Assembly: GCA_016839805.1 (NCBI GenBank)
Contig: JAEOTO010000032.1
Coordinates: 206,725-270,724 of the forward strand
Direction: 5' to 3'
From: Candidatus Hermodarchaeota archaeon
GTDB taxonomy: Archaea > Asgardarchaeota > Hermodarchaeia > Hermodarchaeales > Hermodarchaeaceae
DNA: 64,000 nt
Positions 4,014-61,439 of the stretch are shown here, in pieces. The position numbers and the translations under genes were made by a program. Under the pieces are notes generated by a model. The model saw only the letters and a program-made list of their open reading frames with translations, was not told where the DNA came from and searched no databases. The first letter of the stretch is position 1, and every line of letters starts with the position of its first letter.

Positions 4014-4073
4014 TTAATAGGGGAAAGGACAAACGCCTAATGGACCAATTTCTTCTCCAGGAAGAGGATACAC
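4014..4073 (-). CDS. Putative 19-aa micropeptide MYPLPGEEIGPLGVCPFPY
   Basis: SD GGTGA (4083-4079) 5 nt before GTG; shares MYP start and PFPY-stop end with the micro-ORF at 4331; T-rich tract after the stop. Confidence 0.6.
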   Translation of the reverse strand: MYPLPGEEIGPLGVCPFPY

Positions 4074-4330
4074 ATAATTCACCAAAAGTTGGTGTGTAAT
4101 TTCATACTTAAACACCAAAACATTTCGTACTATAGTATCGAAACAAAACCAAACTCATTTACTCAATTTTACAAACGAATCTAAACAAACTTCGTAAGGC
4201 CAAATTACTTGCAAAAACTCTCTCAAAATCTCGTAAAAATAGTCCAACTCTTTTCGTGTAATTTTCTTTGTTTATATAGAATTTTAGAACGGCTCCTATA
4301 GTAATAACAACTATGGAGGCATCTAACAAA

Positions 4331-4363
4331 ATGTACCCCCCGCAACATCCCTTCCCTTATTAA
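4331..4363 (+). CDS. Putative 10-aa micropeptide MYPPQHPFPY
   Basis: TATA box TTTATATA 4271-4278, SD GGAGG 4315-4319; leader homologous to that of the micro-ORF at 6318; stop overlaps the stop of the 585-aa gene (TTAA 4360-4363). Confidence 0.65.
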   Translation: MYPPQHPFPY

Positions 4364-6117
4364 AAACTATTTTTCCTCCTTTTTTTTGACTTAATTTTTG
4401 GTAGTGTATTCTCTGTCCATACCCATTTTTTTGCATCAAAATCATAGTACTTTGGTTGAATTGGTGATTCAAAACCTGTCATTGCCTGCCAAGTAGGTTT
4501 CACTTGAAATGCTACATTGATTTCCTGGTTTGAAAAGATTTTTTGTAATGTTGATAGAACATCAACAGCATTATGATTCGGGACATAAAGGAAAACATAA
4601 CCATTACCATTTTCAAGAATTACTCCACTAATATTAGGAAGTATATGAAGCGATTGAAGTACTTGTATAGTTATTTCTCGTGGTTCGAAAATGTAAATTT
4701 GGATTACTGTGTCCAAGCCCACGTGGTAAAGAATCAATCCTTGTAGTTTGCTTACGTTGTTTTTTTCTAATTTCTTTATTTGTCTCCTAAATTTCATATG
4801 AGCTGAATCTGCAAGACCTGCGTAACGGGCTTCAAGTGATGGTTGTGCTGCTACTCGATCTGTGCTGAGAATAATTCTGTGATCTCGTCTAAAATATATG
4901 AAATCCTCAGGATTCAATTGAACAGGGAATTTCTGAGTGCTCTGTAATAAGTTGTAGGAAAATTCCAGTGAATACGTTTTTGGTATTTCTTCAACTGGTA
5001 TCTCTTCTGATAAAATTGTACGAGATTTTTCGAGAATAACCGAAAAGTCTTGGGGCCATCCAATTTCGGGTATATATGAACTAAGATTCCAGTTGTTAAT
5101 AATCTCAGAGCTTCGTACGTTCATTAATATTGAGATCTTCTCTTGAACCACGAGGTCTTCTAACCAATCGTTAAAGGTCATTCTTTGGTTGTTTGGGATA
5201 AGTACTCTACAATGAAGTAGGTTATCCTGAATGAGGTTAATTAACCAGGTGTAACAAATTTCAGAAAAGAAAGATGAAATCTGCTGGCATTTCTTTTGGC
5301 TTGGTATCTGTAGAATTACCTCATGGGGAGTTAATCCGATTAATGGTAAGTTGATAAAGTGATATAAGCGAAGTAGATGTCTTTGAGCAAGTTTATTCAA
5401 CGCTTGACTAAGAGCAGAAGGGGTCATTTGAAGTTGTTTAGCAAGTTTGCTTTGATGGAGGGTAGTTATGTGTTTCAGCGTCAAAAGGATACGTAGCTCA
5501 CTACTCGTAAGAGGGGTATGGGTCTCAAGCATCCACCGTTCAAGGGCGGCAGTATAGGTTGATGTGGCGAGGGGAGTGCCGGTGCTTGTGGGACGAATAG
5601 TGTTAAGCCAGTGGAGGGCGCGGTGGAGAAAGCTGCCGGCAACAACTTGATCGAAGAGGGGGAAGCCTAAGGGCGCGTCGTATATGTAGTGCTGGTAGTG
5701 TTGGGGTGGGGACACCTGCTTCCAGATCTTGGTAAACGCCTTATATTCAGATTCGGTATAGTTGCCGTAACGGAGACCAGCGTAGAGGCCAAGGTCAGCC
5801 GCTTCGGGGATGTGACGTAGGTGAGGTAGAAGAAGGCTTAGGAGGGCTTCCCGCCAAAGCACCCAATCTAAGACATGGGAGTCAGCATCTTTGAGGTCCC
5901 GGGCGAGGGCAACGTACCAACCGCCGCGTAGTTGGTTCGCAAGTTGTGTTTCAAGAGCGCCAAAGCGTGGGCGATCATAGATTAACGGGTTGTCACCCCA
6001 TACGAGGTAAAGAATACGGTCTTGCTTCCGGAATAAGGAATCCATAATGAGCTCGGTGGCTAATTGATCCTGTTTACGATGGAACCTTTGCATCAGCTCA
6101 CGCGACCTCGATGACAA
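4360..6117 (-). CDS. Large HTH / tandem Lrp-AsnC-like protein (paralog 1)
   Basis: Central wHTH (ELRILLTL...QSKLAKQLQMTPSALSQALNKL), Lrp-type linkers INLPLIGL and YHVGLD, C-terminal YDFxxxxWxW; colinear with 6474-8204 (PRFGA, VLWREA, ADLGLY, GFPxFD, LERWM). Confidence 0.7.
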   Translation of the reverse strand: MSSRSRELMQRFHRKQDQLATELIMDSLFRKQDRILYLVWGDNPLIYDRPRFGALETQLANQLRGGWYVALARDLKDADSHVLDWVLWREALLSLLLPHLRHIPEAADLGLYAGLRYGNYTESEYKAFTKIWKQVSPPQHYQHYIYDAPLGFPLFDQVVAGSFLHRALHWLNTIRPTSTGTPLATSTYTAALERWMLETHTPLTSSELRILLTLKHITTLHQSKLAKQLQMTPSALSQALNKLAQRHLLRLYHFINLPLIGLTPHEVILQIPSQKKCQQISSFFSEICYTWLINLIQDNLLHCRVLIPNNQRMTFNDWLEDLVVQEKISILMNVRSSEIINNWNLSSYIPEIGWPQDFSVILEKSRTILSEEIPVEEIPKTYSLEFSYNLLQSTQKFPVQLNPEDFIYFRRDHRIILSTDRVAAQPSLEARYAGLADSAHMKFRRQIKKLEKNNVSKLQGLILYHVGLDTVIQIYIFEPREITIQVLQSLHILPNISGVILENGNGYVFLYVPNHNAVDVLSTLQKIFSNQEINVAFQVKPTWQAMTGFESPIQPKYYDFDAKKWVWTENTLPKIKSKKRRKNSF

Positions 6118-6211
6118 TATTTAGCCATCCAACCACACGATGACTATACAAGGGATTCAGGTTAATTTTACCTTCCGATTATCCTTGAAGTATCAATAAA
6201 TAAAAGAAAGG

Positions 6212-6234
6212 AAGGAAACCATCGAGGTTTCCTT
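6212..6234 (-). terminator. Hairpin plus T-rich tract downstream of the MWPP micro-ORF
   Basis: Perfect 9-bp stem AAGGAAACC/GGTTTCCTT followed on the minus strand by CCTTTCTTTTATTT. Confidence 0.5.
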
Positions 6235-6279
6235 TTAGTAAGTACTAAGTAGGAATCGATGTATGTCCCTTTTTATTTC

Positions 6280-6318
6280 CTAAATATCATGAGGGTCAGG
6301 ACGACGAGGGGGCCACAT
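6280..6318 (-). CDS. Putative 12-aa micropeptide MWPPRRPDPHDI
   Basis: TATA-like TTTAAA 6375-6370, SD GGAGG 6333-6329, leader GGAGGCATCAAAACA-ATG nearly identical to that of the 4331 micro-ORF, terminator-like hairpin downstream. Confidence 0.62.
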   Translation of the reverse strand: MWPPRRPDPHDI

Positions 6319-6473
6319 TGTTTTGATGCCTCCGAGGGTTATCTACTCTTCATTTCATGTAAGTTTCCCTTTAAAGACCGAAAATTATTTGCAAAAAGTA
6401 GGATGGATTTTTTTTCTAAATGGACTTTTTGTGTAATAATCTGGTTATTGGTTGTTACATTCATGAATAATTA

Positions 6474-8204
6474 TCAGGTGCGAGGTAGTGGCAAGGTATC
6501 TTTTGTCCATATCCACATGTTTTTTCCAAAGTCGTAGTTAACAGAATCTATAGTATATGGTCCCGTCCATCCATAAGCTTCCCACGCAGGTCTAATTGCT
6601 GTAACGGCCGGAATTTCAAGGGCAGTGAGTAATTCGTTTAAGGAGATTTGTAGATATACAGCGGACTCAGAAGGTACAAGAAGTGTAGCAACACCAGCTC
6701 CATCATCGAATATTCTTCCTGCAACGTGTGGAAACAGTTGACACGCAGTGAAGATTAGGCGAGTTTCCTCTATTGATGATTCAAGGTATAGATAGAGAGC
6801 AGTATTTAAGCCAATATTTAACAACCCAAGTCCGAGTGGTGGGCTAATTACTTCATTTTTTTCAAGATATTTGACACGTCGACGATAAGCCATGTGTTCA
6901 GATTCTTTATATCCAGCCTGCCTCAACTCATGGGACTCAAAAAACTTCATGTGCTCAGTAGCGAGATAAGCATCAGATGCTCTTTGCATGAAAAAGAAAT
7001 CTTGTTGTTTAATCTCGATGCTTTTTTTCGAATGAGAGGAAGCCAGCTTGTAAAAGTTAATGGGTGGTAAATGTGGAATCCATTCTTCTGATATTAATCT
7101 CGAAAAATTGTCAAATATTGATTCGATTTCAAGGGACCAGCCATCCTTTTGGGGGTCGTACAGATTAAAGTTTCGAGCGTGCATTCTTTCTGAAATCATT
7201 CGTAGTTCCGGTGAGCTAAGACCATAACTTGAAGACACTTGTTTAAGCCATTGGCGGAATCGTGTCATTCGTTCTGTTGGAATTAAGAATGAAGCTAAAA
7301 GCTGATTATTGAATTCTTGAATTGCAAGTGCATAACGAATTCTAGAGATTATTTGCGTCAGGGAATTTTTAATTCTCATATTCGAAGTAGAAAATTTGAC
7401 TGTGATTGGTTGAAGACCAAGTATCGGATAATTTTCGAAGATAACAAACCGTAAAAGGTGTTTTTCTGCAAGTCTTTTAATTACTTGACTTATTGTTGGC
7501 TGGCGGATGTTGAGTTTATCAGCTAATTCGATCTGTGAACAGGTAAGACAATTGTTAATGCCCTTTAGGATTTTAAGTTCTATTGGTCGTAAAATTCTGT
7601 GATAGTTGAACATCCAGCGTTCGAGATTCTCAGCATAAGTCTGTGTGGTCATCTTCGTTGATAGTTGAAAGAATGGTTTGAACCATAGTTTGGTCTTCTG
7701 GAGAAAGGTACCATCTACAAGTTTATCGAAAAACGGAAACCCTGCTGTGGGAAAATAGCGGTAAAAGGTATATTCTATAGGTGGTGATGTAATTTCCCAG
7801 ATTTGGAGAAACCAGTGTCGCTGCTTCTTGGTTCTGAGTGCATAGCGGGAGTAGCAATATAGACCGAGATCAGAGGCTTCTTTTACAGAGCGTACTATTT
7901 TGGGTATGTGGAGTAGATAGGCTTCACGCCATAATACCGCATTAAGAAGATTCCTACGTTCAGTAAGCAATTCTTCCGATAATTCCAAAGTTAATTGATT
8001 GTTGGTGCTTGTTTCGTTAGCACCGAAGCGTGGTCCGGTGAGTTCGATTGGGTTTTGGATCCAGCGAATAGTAGTATACGTGTCGAGGGATTCGGTACCA
8101 ATAATCTGTTGTAATTGTCGTGCGATTTCATTAAAACGATGCAAAGCTTCTGTCTTTCGTTGCTTAAGGATTTCATCTGAAATTTTAGAAGGATTTGTAT
8201 TCAT
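6474..8204 (-). CDS. Large HTH / tandem Lrp-AsnC-like protein (paralog 2)
   Basis: HTH SQIELADKLNIRQPTISQVIKRL, linkers NYPILGL and LNIGLN, C-terminal YDFGKNMWIW. Confidence 0.7.
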   Translation of the reverse strand: MNTNPSKISDEILKQRKTEALHRFNEIARQLQQIIGTESLDTYTTIRWIQNPIELTGPRFGANETSTNNQLTLELSEELLTERRNLLNAVLWREAYLLHIPKIVRSVKEASDLGLYCYSRYALRTKKQRHWFLQIWEITSPPIEYTFYRYFPTAGFPFFDKLVDGTFLQKTKLWFKPFFQLSTKMTTQTYAENLERWMFNYHRILRPIELKILKGINNCLTCSQIELADKLNIRQPTISQVIKRLAEKHLLRFVIFENYPILGLQPITVKFSTSNMRIKNSLTQIISRIRYALAIQEFNNQLLASFLIPTERMTRFRQWLKQVSSSYGLSSPELRMISERMHARNFNLYDPQKDGWSLEIESIFDNFSRLISEEWIPHLPPINFYKLASSHSKKSIEIKQQDFFFMQRASDAYLATEHMKFFESHELRQAGYKESEHMAYRRRVKYLEKNEVISPPLGLGLLNIGLNTALYLYLESSIEETRLIFTACQLFPHVAGRIFDDGAGVATLLVPSESAVYLQISLNELLTALEIPAVTAIRPAWEAYGWTGPYTIDSVNYDFGKNMWIWTKDTLPLPRT

Positions 8205-8325
8205 TGTGAGAGTTCCCGTGGTTTTCCCTAGACTAGTCTATTCATGAATATGACATCTTAATAGTCTTAGGAAGAATAAGTGATTGAAGGTGTGGAGTTT
8301 TTCTATTCTATAGTCTTGAGATGAA

Positions 8326-8507
8326 TGGCGCGACTGCTTGGTCGTAGTCCGGGTGGCTGAGCGGTGTACAATCTGTGGGGTGGTTGGATGCCTCGCAACA
8401 ATAATCGATTGCACATCTCCCCTCGTTGGATCCGACTGCCGATTGAGGGTCCGGAATCGTGCCGGGGGTACAATACGGTAGTCGGAGCACGGCCACTACG
8501 TTAGCCA
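8326..8507 (+). ncRNA. Unidentified structured RNA (~180 nt)
   Basis: GC-rich intergenic island with nested stems, e.g. TCCGACTGCCG/CGGTAGTCGGA, CGTAGT/ACTACG, TGTGGGGT/GCCTCGCA; G-U pairs favour the + strand; T-run follows. Confidence 0.55.
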
Positions 8508-8549
8508 ATTTTTATCAGAAATTGCTAACAGTTCAAATAGCAGAAGAAG

Positions 8550-8669
8550 TGGTAGCGGGGGGTTGATTTGAACAACCGATCTCGGGGTTTCCCAAGGGGA
8601 TTTATGAGCCCCGCGGGATATCAGGTCTCGGTGAGGAACACCAAGATATCCTGGCTACCCCACCCCGCT
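8550..8669 (-). tRNA. Initiator tRNA-Met(CAT) with two introns (20a/21: 8620-8647; 37/38: 8589-8602)
   Basis: A1:T72 pair, G-rich anticodon stem CGGGG/CCCCG, CAT anticodon; 120 nt minus 28 and 14 gives a 78-nt mature tRNA; BHB central helix CAGG/CCTG. Confidence 0.92.
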
Positions 8670-8777
8670 TCCGAAGATAATGGGAATCGTTAGAGAAGAG
8701 CCGGCGTTATTGATTTAAGCTTTGTGCCTTGAAGAAGATAAGCAACCGGTTCGCTTTGAGTGATGGAGAAGAAGTAG

Positions 8778-8854
8778 TGGTGGGTCGGACGGGCTTCGAA
8801 CCCGCGACCTCTCGGTTATCAGCCGAGTGCCCTACCAAGCTAGGCCACCGACCC
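8778..8854 (-). tRNA. tRNA-Ile(GAT)
   Basis: Complete cloverleaf GGGTCGG...CTCGG-CTGATAA-CCGAG...CCGACCCACCA; no intron. Confidence 0.96.
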
Positions 8855-58056: not shown

Positions 58057-58193
58057 TGGCGGGCTCGGCGGGACTTGAACCCGCGACCCTCGGGTGTCTT
58101 TAGAAGACTGCTAGAAGCTCTTCTCTAAAAGCCCGATGCTCTGACCTTACCCACGCCGGAAACCCGGTACGTGTCTGGCTAAGCTACGAGCCC
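58057..58193 (-). tRNA. tRNA-Lys(TTT) with two introns (18/19: 58146-58174; 37/38: 58096-58125)
   Basis: GGGCTCG/CGAGCCC, G73, CTTTTA[intron]A; BHB helix CTTT/AAAG; 137-29-30 = 78 nt. Confidence 0.92.
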
Positions 58194-61062: not shown

Positions 61063-61439
61063 CAGTGATAAGAATAGCCCATCTTCTGTTCAACCATGTG
61101 AGTTACCTTACATGGCTTGACGGCATCTAGCTAAGCACCCTACCCGACACCTCAGCAGGCGCCTCATCGGTGGCCTATTTGGGCTTGCTCCCACGGTGAT
61201 AGGCCGTTTCATCGGTTCCAACGCCGTCCTCAACAGGTTAACCAGTGTACTGTTACCAGCACACTGCTTAGATTAACCTTGGATTAATCCTCTACTGCAT
61301 CATCGTCATCTCAGCGATGGTCGTGTCGTTGCTGTTCCTAGAGCAGAATTCTCATTCTACGGCTCACGCCGTACCGTTGCCTGTAGGAGGATGGAGCTTC
61401 CTCAGACGCTGTGCGTCCGGCAGCCGTCCTTTATCACTG
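61063..61439 (-). ncRNA. rnpB: RNase P RNA
   Basis: P1 CAGTGATAA/TTATCACTG; CR-I GAGGAAGCTCCATC pairs with CR-V AACAGAAGATGGGCT; internal TGAAACGG and GAGCAAG motifs. Confidence 0.93.

Follow-up and report, generated by a model that had tools for sequence, protein, structure and literature searches.

In bacterial peptide-regulator systems of the RRNPP type, the peptide gene is sometimes convergent with the regulator gene, as in group III of Rgg/SHP. To our knowledge, no ribosomally made peptide signal and no peptide-regulator pair has been described in Archaea. For RRNPP-type cassettes, tandemly duplicated peptide units are reported (PMC11343458). CreT, from the CreTA modules of the P. aeruginosa type I-F system, combines a Shine-Dalgarno (SD) sequence, a mini-open reading frame (ORF) with two Pro codons and a hairpin; its minimal requirement is ATG-x-Pro-Pro-stop, and both synonymous changes and spacer insertions are tolerated (bioRxiv 10.64898/2026.06.02.729485). 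Here, we analysed a stretch of 64,000 nt of Candidatus Hermodarchaeota archaeon (GCA_016839805.1, contig JAEOTO010000032.1, positions 206,725 to 270,724; hereafter the window), in which proline-rich mini-genes encoding peptides of 10-13 aa lie beside two paralogous genes, A and B, for large putative DNA-binding regulators. We tentatively interpret this locus as an archaeal peptide-receptor circuit, in which leaderless, protease-resistant decapeptides of the form [WYF]PPxRPxP would be read by the catalytically dead, M1-like sensor of a double-Lrp transcription factor, with feedback on the peptide genes; this is the explanation that we favour, although we place it somewhat short of probable. In literature searches, neither the A/B proteins as a family nor the mini-genes were found described, and no peptide-regulator pair from an archaeon came up, in agreement with a preliminary description of this DNA, which had named no archaeal counterpart.

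Mini-genes around a pair of regulator genes

The source is an Asgard metagenome-assembled genome (2.31 Mb, 44% GC, 87% complete), whose relatives are labelled Hermodarchaeota or Promethearchaeota. Gene A (6474..8204, - strand) is an ORF of 576 aa, with an N-terminal domain (N-domain, residues 1 to ~200) followed by two modules predicted to consist of a winged helix-turn-helix (wHTH) and a RAM domain. Its paralog, gene B (4360..6117, -; 33% identity, E 6e-81), encodes 585 aa, starts with TTG here, and is bracketed by two mini-genes. Upstream of it, mu-up (6280..6318 including the stop, -; ATG...TAG) encodes the peptide MWPPRRPDPHDI, its codons starting ATG-TGG-CCC-CCT; downstream, mu-down (4331..4363 including the stop, +; ATG...TAA) encodes MYPPQHPFPY and is convergent with gene B, the stop codons of the two genes overlapping. 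A third micro-ORF, ORF1 (4014..4073, -), reads (GTG)-YPLPGEEIGPLGVCPFPY and has the same MYP start and PFPY-stop end as mu-down. All three had been pointed out in the preliminary description and are present at the coordinates given there; its further statement that each begins with Met behind an SD sequence holds for mu-up and mu-down (ATG, GGAGG) but not for ORF1, which has a GTG start and merely a GGTGA.

A six-frame scan of the 2.31-Mb genome gave one occurrence of the pattern M.?[YWF]PP.RP.P and two of a less strict version, all within the locus. Both genome-wide occurrences of 'PFPY-stop' are found at the locus. SD-led M[YWF]P micro-ORFs containing four or more Pro number four in the genome, and three of these belong to the locus as well. 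A DNA pattern combining the SD sequence and the ORF matched five of 400 Asgard genomes, all of the source genus and in each case on a contig stretch that also holds the A/B pair, while the reversed control gave no match. The micro-ORF observation is confirmed as real, and chance is excluded.

For comparison, 16 loci from species-representative genomes were retrieved by a homologue-alignment search, and more were added by a profile search of 1.8 billion representatives and by exact-protein look-ups. The same tandem of A followed by B is found in 15 of the 16 loci, with a spacer of 220-640 bp, and mini-genes occur in about 20 loci of relatives, at GC contents of 36-58%. A mu-up of the form M[x][WY]PPxRP[DE]Px lies ~130-160 nt past the gene A stop, on the gene strand, in 14 of the 15 tandem loci, and a mini-gene of this type also stands upstream of the solo or B-like genes in loci L033 and L044. 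On the other side, a convergent mini-gene ends at most ~50 nt from the gene B stop in all 14 related loci with sequence there, and within ~110-125 nt of the stop of gene B or a B-like gene in L028, L033, and L044. The added loci L032-L034 likewise have both mini-genes. The preliminary description had proposed a search for Pro-rich micro-ORFs beside homologues; they are indeed found there, as conserved SD-led coding units tightly linked to both regulators.

Where the amino acid is conserved, the minor-allele fractions at codon positions 1, 2, and 3 are 0, 0.02, and 0.33 in mu-up and 0, 0, and 0.42 in mu-down. Variation restricted almost wholly to third positions indicates selection on the peptide rather than on the DNA, and the substitution pattern shows the mini-genes to be under purifying selection at the amino-acid level. 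This pattern bears on a non-coding explanation for the conserved islands, whether as DNA bound by a protein, as a small RNA, or as terminal inverted repeats belonging to a mobile element that carries B. Such an origin would fit the inverted arrangement of the cassettes around B and the differences between lineages in the genes downstream of it. Against it stand the confinement of variation to third codon positions, the persistence of the peptide over a range of 36-58% GC, the presence of a start codon, a stop codon, and an SD sequence in every case, and the lack of any long inverted repeat between the two arms; we regard it as extremely improbable. A mobile element with terminal inverted repeats, considered as a separate candidate, was rejected, as there is no long inverted repeat and the trees of A and B are congruent; this congruence, together with the single-copy state of the cassette, points to vertical descent.

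In the source genus, the mu-down consensus is MYPxR[DH]PFPx, and copies without Pro-Pro occur in many lineages (e.g. MYPARDPFPS, MYPQRDPFPS, and MSYPRIRPLPGN), still conserved residue by residue. The GC-rich loci L028 and L044 use other codons for the same peptide core. In L028 (58% GC), a solo gene is followed downstream by MYPPRNPWPEPY; the solo gene of L033 has MTWPPRRPDPSL upstream and MTFPPSRPGPMPA convergent downstream, both peptides being of one type; and L044 (56% GC) combines two convergent paralogs with three mini-genes (MYPPPRPEPVPG, MYPPPRPEPVPH, and MWPPIKPEPTPG). Because these distant loci keep it, [W/Y/F]-P-P-x-R-P-x-P is the ancestral peptide core. Extra tandem mini-gene copies, each with its own SD sequence, are found in L008, L009, L011, and L015, and in L019 a single ORF contains two YPPSRPDGGPN units that differ only synonymously. 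A metagenome-wide scan for ATGTGGCCCCCNNNNCGNCCNGANCC gave five matches, all inside long ORFs on contigs of 64-70% GC without an A/B homologue; this equals the chance expectation, which makes the scan uninformative.

The A/B pair is present in 17 of the 19 genomes of the GTDB class (one family), including all 15 of the source genus. In the tree, the gene A clade has a support of 96/100, and the solo homologues group on the B side. Comparison of the loci shows a cassette conserved throughout this Asgard (Hermodarchaeota-type) class, in which gene A, judging from its homologues, is an old duplicate alongside B. By their position across loci, the mini-genes lie on either side of gene B, or of the solo gene that corresponds to it, and face inward, one upstream and one convergent downstream. 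The earlier idea of a micro-ORF at the 3' end of each large gene is therefore accurate as to position, but the comparison assigns both mini-genes to gene B, and a pairing of one peptide with each paralog gives way to two inward-facing mini-genes flanking gene B or a solo homologue. Two receptor paralogs usually go together with two peptide types. The genome encodes a third paralog (C21:13794-15572, -, 592 aa, ~22-27% identity to A/B) with the motif LYRE...DLGL. No mini-genes were found beside this gene (as p592 in L003) or the other distant family members in L026, L027, L042, and L043, indicating that only members of the A/B clade are linked to mini-genes. In L043, the distant superfamily member P0077 (548 aa, zincin-like and double-Lrp) directly adjoins cas2-cas1, and no Pro-rich mini-gene was found there.

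ORF1 is restricted to the source genome and its closest relative, L005, where it starts with ATG instead of GTG. Its SD sequence (GGTGA) is weak, and the frame remains open further upstream to a TTG at 4118. Neither of the two internal substitutions relative to L005 alters an amino acid, but the two genomes share 90-100% identity over the entire spacer, and the conservation of ORF1 thus says little. It is probably a recent, lineage-specific, divergent duplicate of mu-down. Upstream of it (4100-4150, -), a near-palindrome, TTTCGATACTATAGTACGAAA, and the ~60 nt that follow it are 100% identical to L005, above the level of the surrounding spacer.

Promoters, hairpins, and the TTGCA box

The mini-genes share a fixed order of elements, as read from the alignment of the A-B spacer (IG1) and from the distant loci: a TTGCA box, a TATA box (CTTTAAA or GTTTATATA), ~45 nt, GGAGG(CATC), 6-9 nt, and the start codon. 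For mu-up, the GGAGG (6329..6333, -) lies inside the conserved GGAGGCATC; it is invariant in an alignment of eight sequences and present in 14 of the 15 rows of the IG1 alignment (L018 has GGAGA). The TATA box CTTTAAAG (6369..6377, -) stands ~55 nt before the ATG, in a conserved block that has the same position in distant loci. The TTGCA box follows 12-16 nt further upstream, a distance that is the same in loci of 36-58% GC; it reads TTTTTGCAAA here and contains the palindrome TTTGCAAA (6382..6397, no strand assigned; TTTTTGCAAATAATTT on the mini-gene strand), a candidate regulator-binding site. Within the IG1 alignment, TTTTTGC is nearly invariant. The corresponding elements of mu-down are the TATA box GTTTATATA (4270..4278, +) and the GGAGG (4315..4319, +; GGAGGCATC), and a second copy of the box, TTGCAAAAA (4202..4217, no strand assigned; 15/16 nt match), lies between the divergent mu-down and ORF1. 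Nearly all mini-gene copies keep the GGAGG at fixed spacing. A wider regulon of the TTGCA box was considered and rejected: the composite TTTTGC[AG]-N9-16-TATA has five sites in the genome compared to 0-9 in shuffled sequences, a result from which no regulon can be derived, and among the five sites, only the one at mu-up has an SD sequence and a start codon.

Downstream of mu-up, a hairpin (GGAAACC-loop-GGTTTCC; 6211..6236, -) followed by a T-run (6196-6210) is predicted to terminate or stabilise the transcript. Of the 14 loci listed, 12 have a hairpin of 7-10 bp with a T-run, with folding energies of -9.8 to -13.1 kcal/mol and including a compensatory variant (GGAACCC/GGGTTCC); L033 and L034 carry different hairpins after mu-up, and a hairpin/T-run also follows mu-down in L019, L028, and L044. 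Past the hairpin, gene B has a conserved block of its own (AATCGGAAGGTARAATTA ... TGGATGG), and the conserved AATCGGAAGGTAAAATTA motif (6163..6180, -), an IG1 alignment block assigned to the gene B promoter or leader, occurs once in the window. The start-codon column of gene B is conserved among relatives as TTG, GTG, or ATG.

This layout, with mu-up upstream of B on the same strand and a hairpin/T-run between them, could suggest cis-acting leader or arrest peptides, in which pausing would sense the status of Pro-tRNA, aIF5A, or polyamines and control read-through of the hairpin into B in the case of mu-up and antisense transcription into the 3' end of B in the case of mu-down. Conservation at the peptide level is typical of arrest peptides, and [WY]PP and P[DE]P belong to the classical motifs at which ribosomes pause and depend on EF-P/eIF5A. 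However, the distance from the mu-up stop to the hairpin ranges from ~5 to >100 nt, and extra mini-gene copies or up to 467 nt may intervene; no conserved alternative (antiterminator) fold was found around the mu-up hairpin; gene B has its own conserved promoter/leader block after the terminator; and no gene follows mu-down on the same strand. On account of the variable geometry and of mu-down lacking such a gene, we consider a leader or attenuator function very unlikely. The variable distance between ORF and hairpin and the missing alternative pairing argue for autonomous transcription units rather than classical attenuators, and each mini-gene is, as predicted from its elements, such a small autonomous unit.

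Regulator proteins and the peptide-ligand proposal

The only Pfam matches of A and B are wHTH domains of the MarR/HTH_24 type at approximately residues 205-250 (209-252 in A), with no match to the AsnC profile or to TPR. In the AlphaFold2 (AF2) model of gene A (predicted local distance difference test, pLDDT, 85.7; predicted template modelling score, pTM, 0.84), residues ~200-576 have as best Foldseek match the fused double module NirDL (4ch7, siroheme decarboxylase; E 1.3e-6 over 364 columns), followed by feast/famine regulatory proteins such as PH0061, ST1022, and FL11, among others (E 5e-4 to 1e-2, target TM 0.5-0.58). The order of a wHTH and then a RAM fold (beta-alpha-beta-beta-alpha-beta) is found twice per chain. 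Thus, the Lrp-like character ascribed earlier to the large proteins is borne out at the fold level by two wHTH+RAM modules; at 576 and 585 aa and with an extra N-domain, they differ from typical stand-alone Lrp/AsnC proteins of ~150 aa. The preliminary description was also right to set them apart from TPR-based RRNPP receptors, as the predicted fold is zincin-like plus two wHTH+RAM modules and Pfam gave no TPR match.

Modelled alone, the N-domain reaches a pLDDT of 90.8. A sequence search against Pfam (E up to 10) and a profile search of the PDB returned only noise, and Foldseek against the PDB gave E > 0.1, leaving exhaustive structural alignment as the one informative search. Aligned with all PDB representatives (VIA-align), the domain best matches M1 aminopeptidases (Z 9.3-10.0, 173-178 of 205 residues), with 1z1w at the top (Z 10.0, root-mean-square deviation 3.9, 173 aa). 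Nearly all of the best 50 rows are zincin peptidases, including thermolysin, ACE, M3, M32, M48, and minigluzincins, together with the pseudo-peptidase TAF2, and atlas structure matches add SprT, YgjP, and M48. The helix equivalent to HExxH reads W92-R93-E94-A95-x-L97 and is invariant, and A and B have no His pair in common; this replacement of HExxH by W-R-E-A-x-L indicates a zincin fold without the zinc site. The N-domain therefore models as a zinc-less gluzincin fold similar to M1 aminopeptidases. Its invariant residues are largely aromatic, and by topology we infer that they lie on the edge strand (R59-F60), the active-site helix (W92-R93-E94), and the next helix (D112, G114, Y116), positions that would, again from topology, form the substrate cleft of a zincin. 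An R-F-G-[AV]-x-E segment occurs ~30 residues before the W-R-E helix; its spacing may resemble that of GxMEN, the M1 exopeptidase motif that anchors the substrate N-terminus. Gene B further shows a step in GC content, with 53-55% in its 5' third (5450-6117), corresponding to the N-domain, compared to 33-37% elsewhere. This step is kept in most relatives (0.47-0.55 vs. 0.35-0.44) and absent from gene A.

Taken together, it is possible, and our tentative preference, that the dead-peptidase domain takes the peptides as its ligands and that a feedback loop operates by way of the TTGCA box. The peptides of 10-13 aa, which have no signal sequence, would be produced inside the cell. Pro at positions 3, 4, 7, and 9 would confer aminopeptidase resistance, and the X-Pro bonds would protect the peptides from such enzymes. 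They may then dock onto the peptidase-like, catalytically dead domain in B, in A, or in both, and alter the seating of the double-Lrp part on the palindromic TTTGCAAA box upstream of the TATA boxes of the mini-genes. The outcome would be a peptide-regulator feedback loop, serving either as a cell-cell signal or as an internal timer or sensor. More speculatively, the variable residues preceding the aromatic position (M, MQ, MK, MT, MS, or MH) might be trimmed to a common [WYF]-Pro N-terminus. In support of a ligand role, mu-down retains its sequence in lineages without Pro-Pro, internal and tandem repeats are kept at the peptide level, and the number of peptide types tends to match the number of receptor paralogs across loci; the predicted zinc-less, aminopeptidase-like fold of the N-domain adds a new argument.

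The strongest competing explanation takes the mini-genes for proline-stalling elements of the CreT type, with a strong SD sequence, stalling at Pro-Pro or P-[DE]-P, and an RNA-stabilising hairpin, whose two promoters would be silenced by B (with A) through the TTGCA box. Should B be lost or inactivated, growth would be arrested, resulting in an addictive cassette or in a stress or abortive switch. Mu-up does have an SD sequence, a consecutive-Pro mini-ORF, and a hairpin at variable distance; synonymous changes are tolerated in CreT as in the mini-genes; gene B is bracketed on both sides and the cassette is retained in 17 of the 19 genomes of the class; the mini-gene codons are common, as in the Pseudomonas toxin; and a distant family member adjoins cas1-cas2. 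On the other hand, the CreT-like combination of SD sequence, Pro-Pro mini-ORF, and hairpin is found in mu-up and the ancestral-type mini-genes, while Pro-Pro is missing from many mu-down copies that are nevertheless conserved residue by residue. Conservation of mu-down where Pro-Pro was lost indicates that the peptide is important over its entire length, beyond a pair of Pro codons, and 10-13 conserved residues, including W/Y, R, D/E, and F, far exceed the four-codon requirement of CreT. No cas genes flank the cassette, and neither a CRISPR family (Rfam, in the window) nor a CreA-like guide was found at the locus, although no dedicated CRISPR-array search was run. The box also lies upstream of TATA, a position that is more typical of activators than of repressors among the archaeal Lrp/Ptr2 regulators, and the dead-peptidase domain would be left unexplained. 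Overall, we regard a CreT-like function as fairly unlikely. A rare-codon toxin that sequesters tRNAs was rejected separately, since CCC, CCT, CCA, CGT, and CGA are all common codons here.

The peptides might instead act on a target other than A and B, such as the ribosome, a protease, or a polyproline-binding protein (e.g. profilin), with A and B just regulating their transcription. The evidence for translation and linkage would be the same, the conserved TTGCA box shows the mini-genes to be regulated, and none of the observations ties the peptides physically to A or B. Yet this would leave unexplained both the linkage to a peptidase-like, probably peptide-binding fold and the tracking of receptor-paralog number by peptide types, making such a target decidedly unlikely. 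As for the earlier suggestion of substrates resembling ribosomally synthesised and post-translationally modified peptides, it finds no match at the locus: the peptides comprise merely 10-13 aa, a leader and core with enzymes alongside was not found, and in place of conserved modifying enzymes the neighbours (MoxR/VWA, tRNAs, ValRS, PolD, Cdc6) vary between lineages.

Several points weigh against a ligand role. Amino acids are the normal ligands of the RAM domains in Lrp proteins, and the ligand could be something else. By analogy, CreT is made up of precisely these three parts, an SD sequence, a Pro-Pro mini-ORF, and a hairpin, and inward-facing mini-genes around gene B would suit an addiction module. 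Loci of the L019 type have two regulators and one mini-gene. The zincin assignment comes from the modelled fold alone, with the equivalence of W-R-E-A and HExxH read from topology rather than superposition.

If the peptides do act as ligands, no earlier case of signalling or autoregulation by a ribosomal peptide would have been described in Archaea; the circuit would be located in the Asgard lineage and built from parts unrelated to any bacterial peptide-receptor circuit. If they are instead proline-stalling toxins held down by a regulator, the CreT principle would apply in archaea as well and would include control by a protein. Under either reading, the cassette is a core feature of the whole class. 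Genes of ten codons are invisible to gene callers, and the mini-genes are unannotated here; with two to three mini-genes, two regulators, and one operator-like box, the locus offers a small, bounded, and strongly conserved test case.

Neighbouring features and comparison with known systems

The cassette is flanked in the window by MoxR/VWA genes and by tRNAs/ValRS. Downstream of gene B, the genes vary by lineage, with VWA here and ValRS, the PolD small subunit, or Cdc6 elsewhere; in several lineages (L032, L033, L034), the cassette adjoins the PolD small subunit and/or Cdc6/Orc1, genes that in archaea are usually a sign of a replication origin. A GC-rich segment immediately before gene A (8290-8600, ~52%, ~300 nt; upstream) has 70-90% nucleotide identity in at least 10 related loci at the same position and folds well on the + strand (z -2.9), making it a candidate structured RNA; an Rfam search of 8200-8800 at E <= 1 gave no match. 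Its most widely conserved part (~8545-8600, -; 88-97% identity even in distant loci) resembles the 3' half of a tRNA, in which a T-arm (GGTTG-TTCAAAT-CAACC) precedes a CCA-bearing acceptor end. No tRNA was called there by ARAGORN or Rfam, and the element may be an intron-containing or split tRNA. Farther away, ARAGORN predicts a tRNA with the anticodon CTA ('tRNA-Pyl') at 58057-58134 (-), which the Rfam tRNA model did not report at gathering score; no PylS above the cut-off was found in the 87%-complete genome, and this tRNA may be mis-called or unusual. An archaeal RNase P RNA (Rfam RF00373, 173 bits) lies at 61063-61439 (-).

Compared with known systems, the part of gene A from residue ~200 to 576 resembles Lrp/AsnC regulators and NirDL/AhbAB in its wHTH+RAM units, which are doubled as in fused NirDL; unlike in those proteins, both modules are joined in one chain behind an added peptidase-like domain of 200 aa. 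This N-domain superposes with the gluzincins tricorn factor F3, LTA4 hydrolase, PSA, and ERAP1 (Z 8-10), with thermolysin (Z 7.1), and with TAF2 of TFIID, a non-catalytic form of the gluzincin fold (Z 7.0-7.9). In contrast to the gluzincins, it lacks the HExxH zinc site and any sequence-level similarity, and it is fused to DNA-binding modules. Regulators of the IrrE/PprI and ImmA type likewise unite a zincin-like domain and an HTH with a domain that senses a small ligand; as M78 proteases with an active HExxH, they cleave a repressor. Likened to them by general description only, A and B differ in the loss of the metal site and in having a peptide mini-gene as partner.

Like the mini-genes, CreT has an SD sequence, a very short consecutive-Pro ORF, a tolerant distance to the hairpin, and common codons. 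It is under the transcriptional control of an adjacent DNA-binding system, as the mini-genes would be, through the candidate box, if they functioned in the same way. However, the controller here would be a protein regulator instead of Cascade-CreA, 10-13 residues are conserved, many mu-down copies have no Pro-Pro, and toxicity would be ascribed by analogy. The RRNPP and Rgg-SHP systems (PlcR/PapR, Rgg/SHP, AimR/AimP) share with this locus a short peptide gene beside the gene of a DNA-binding regulator and the occurrence of paralogous cassette versions. There is no homology between them: the predicted receptor is a zinc-less gluzincin fold with two Lrp/AsnC modules in place of TPR, and the peptides, 10-13 aa as encoded, have neither a signal or leader part nor a hydrophobic stretch. 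Unlike those systems, the cassette described here resides in an archaeal host, with two mini-genes bracketing one regulator.

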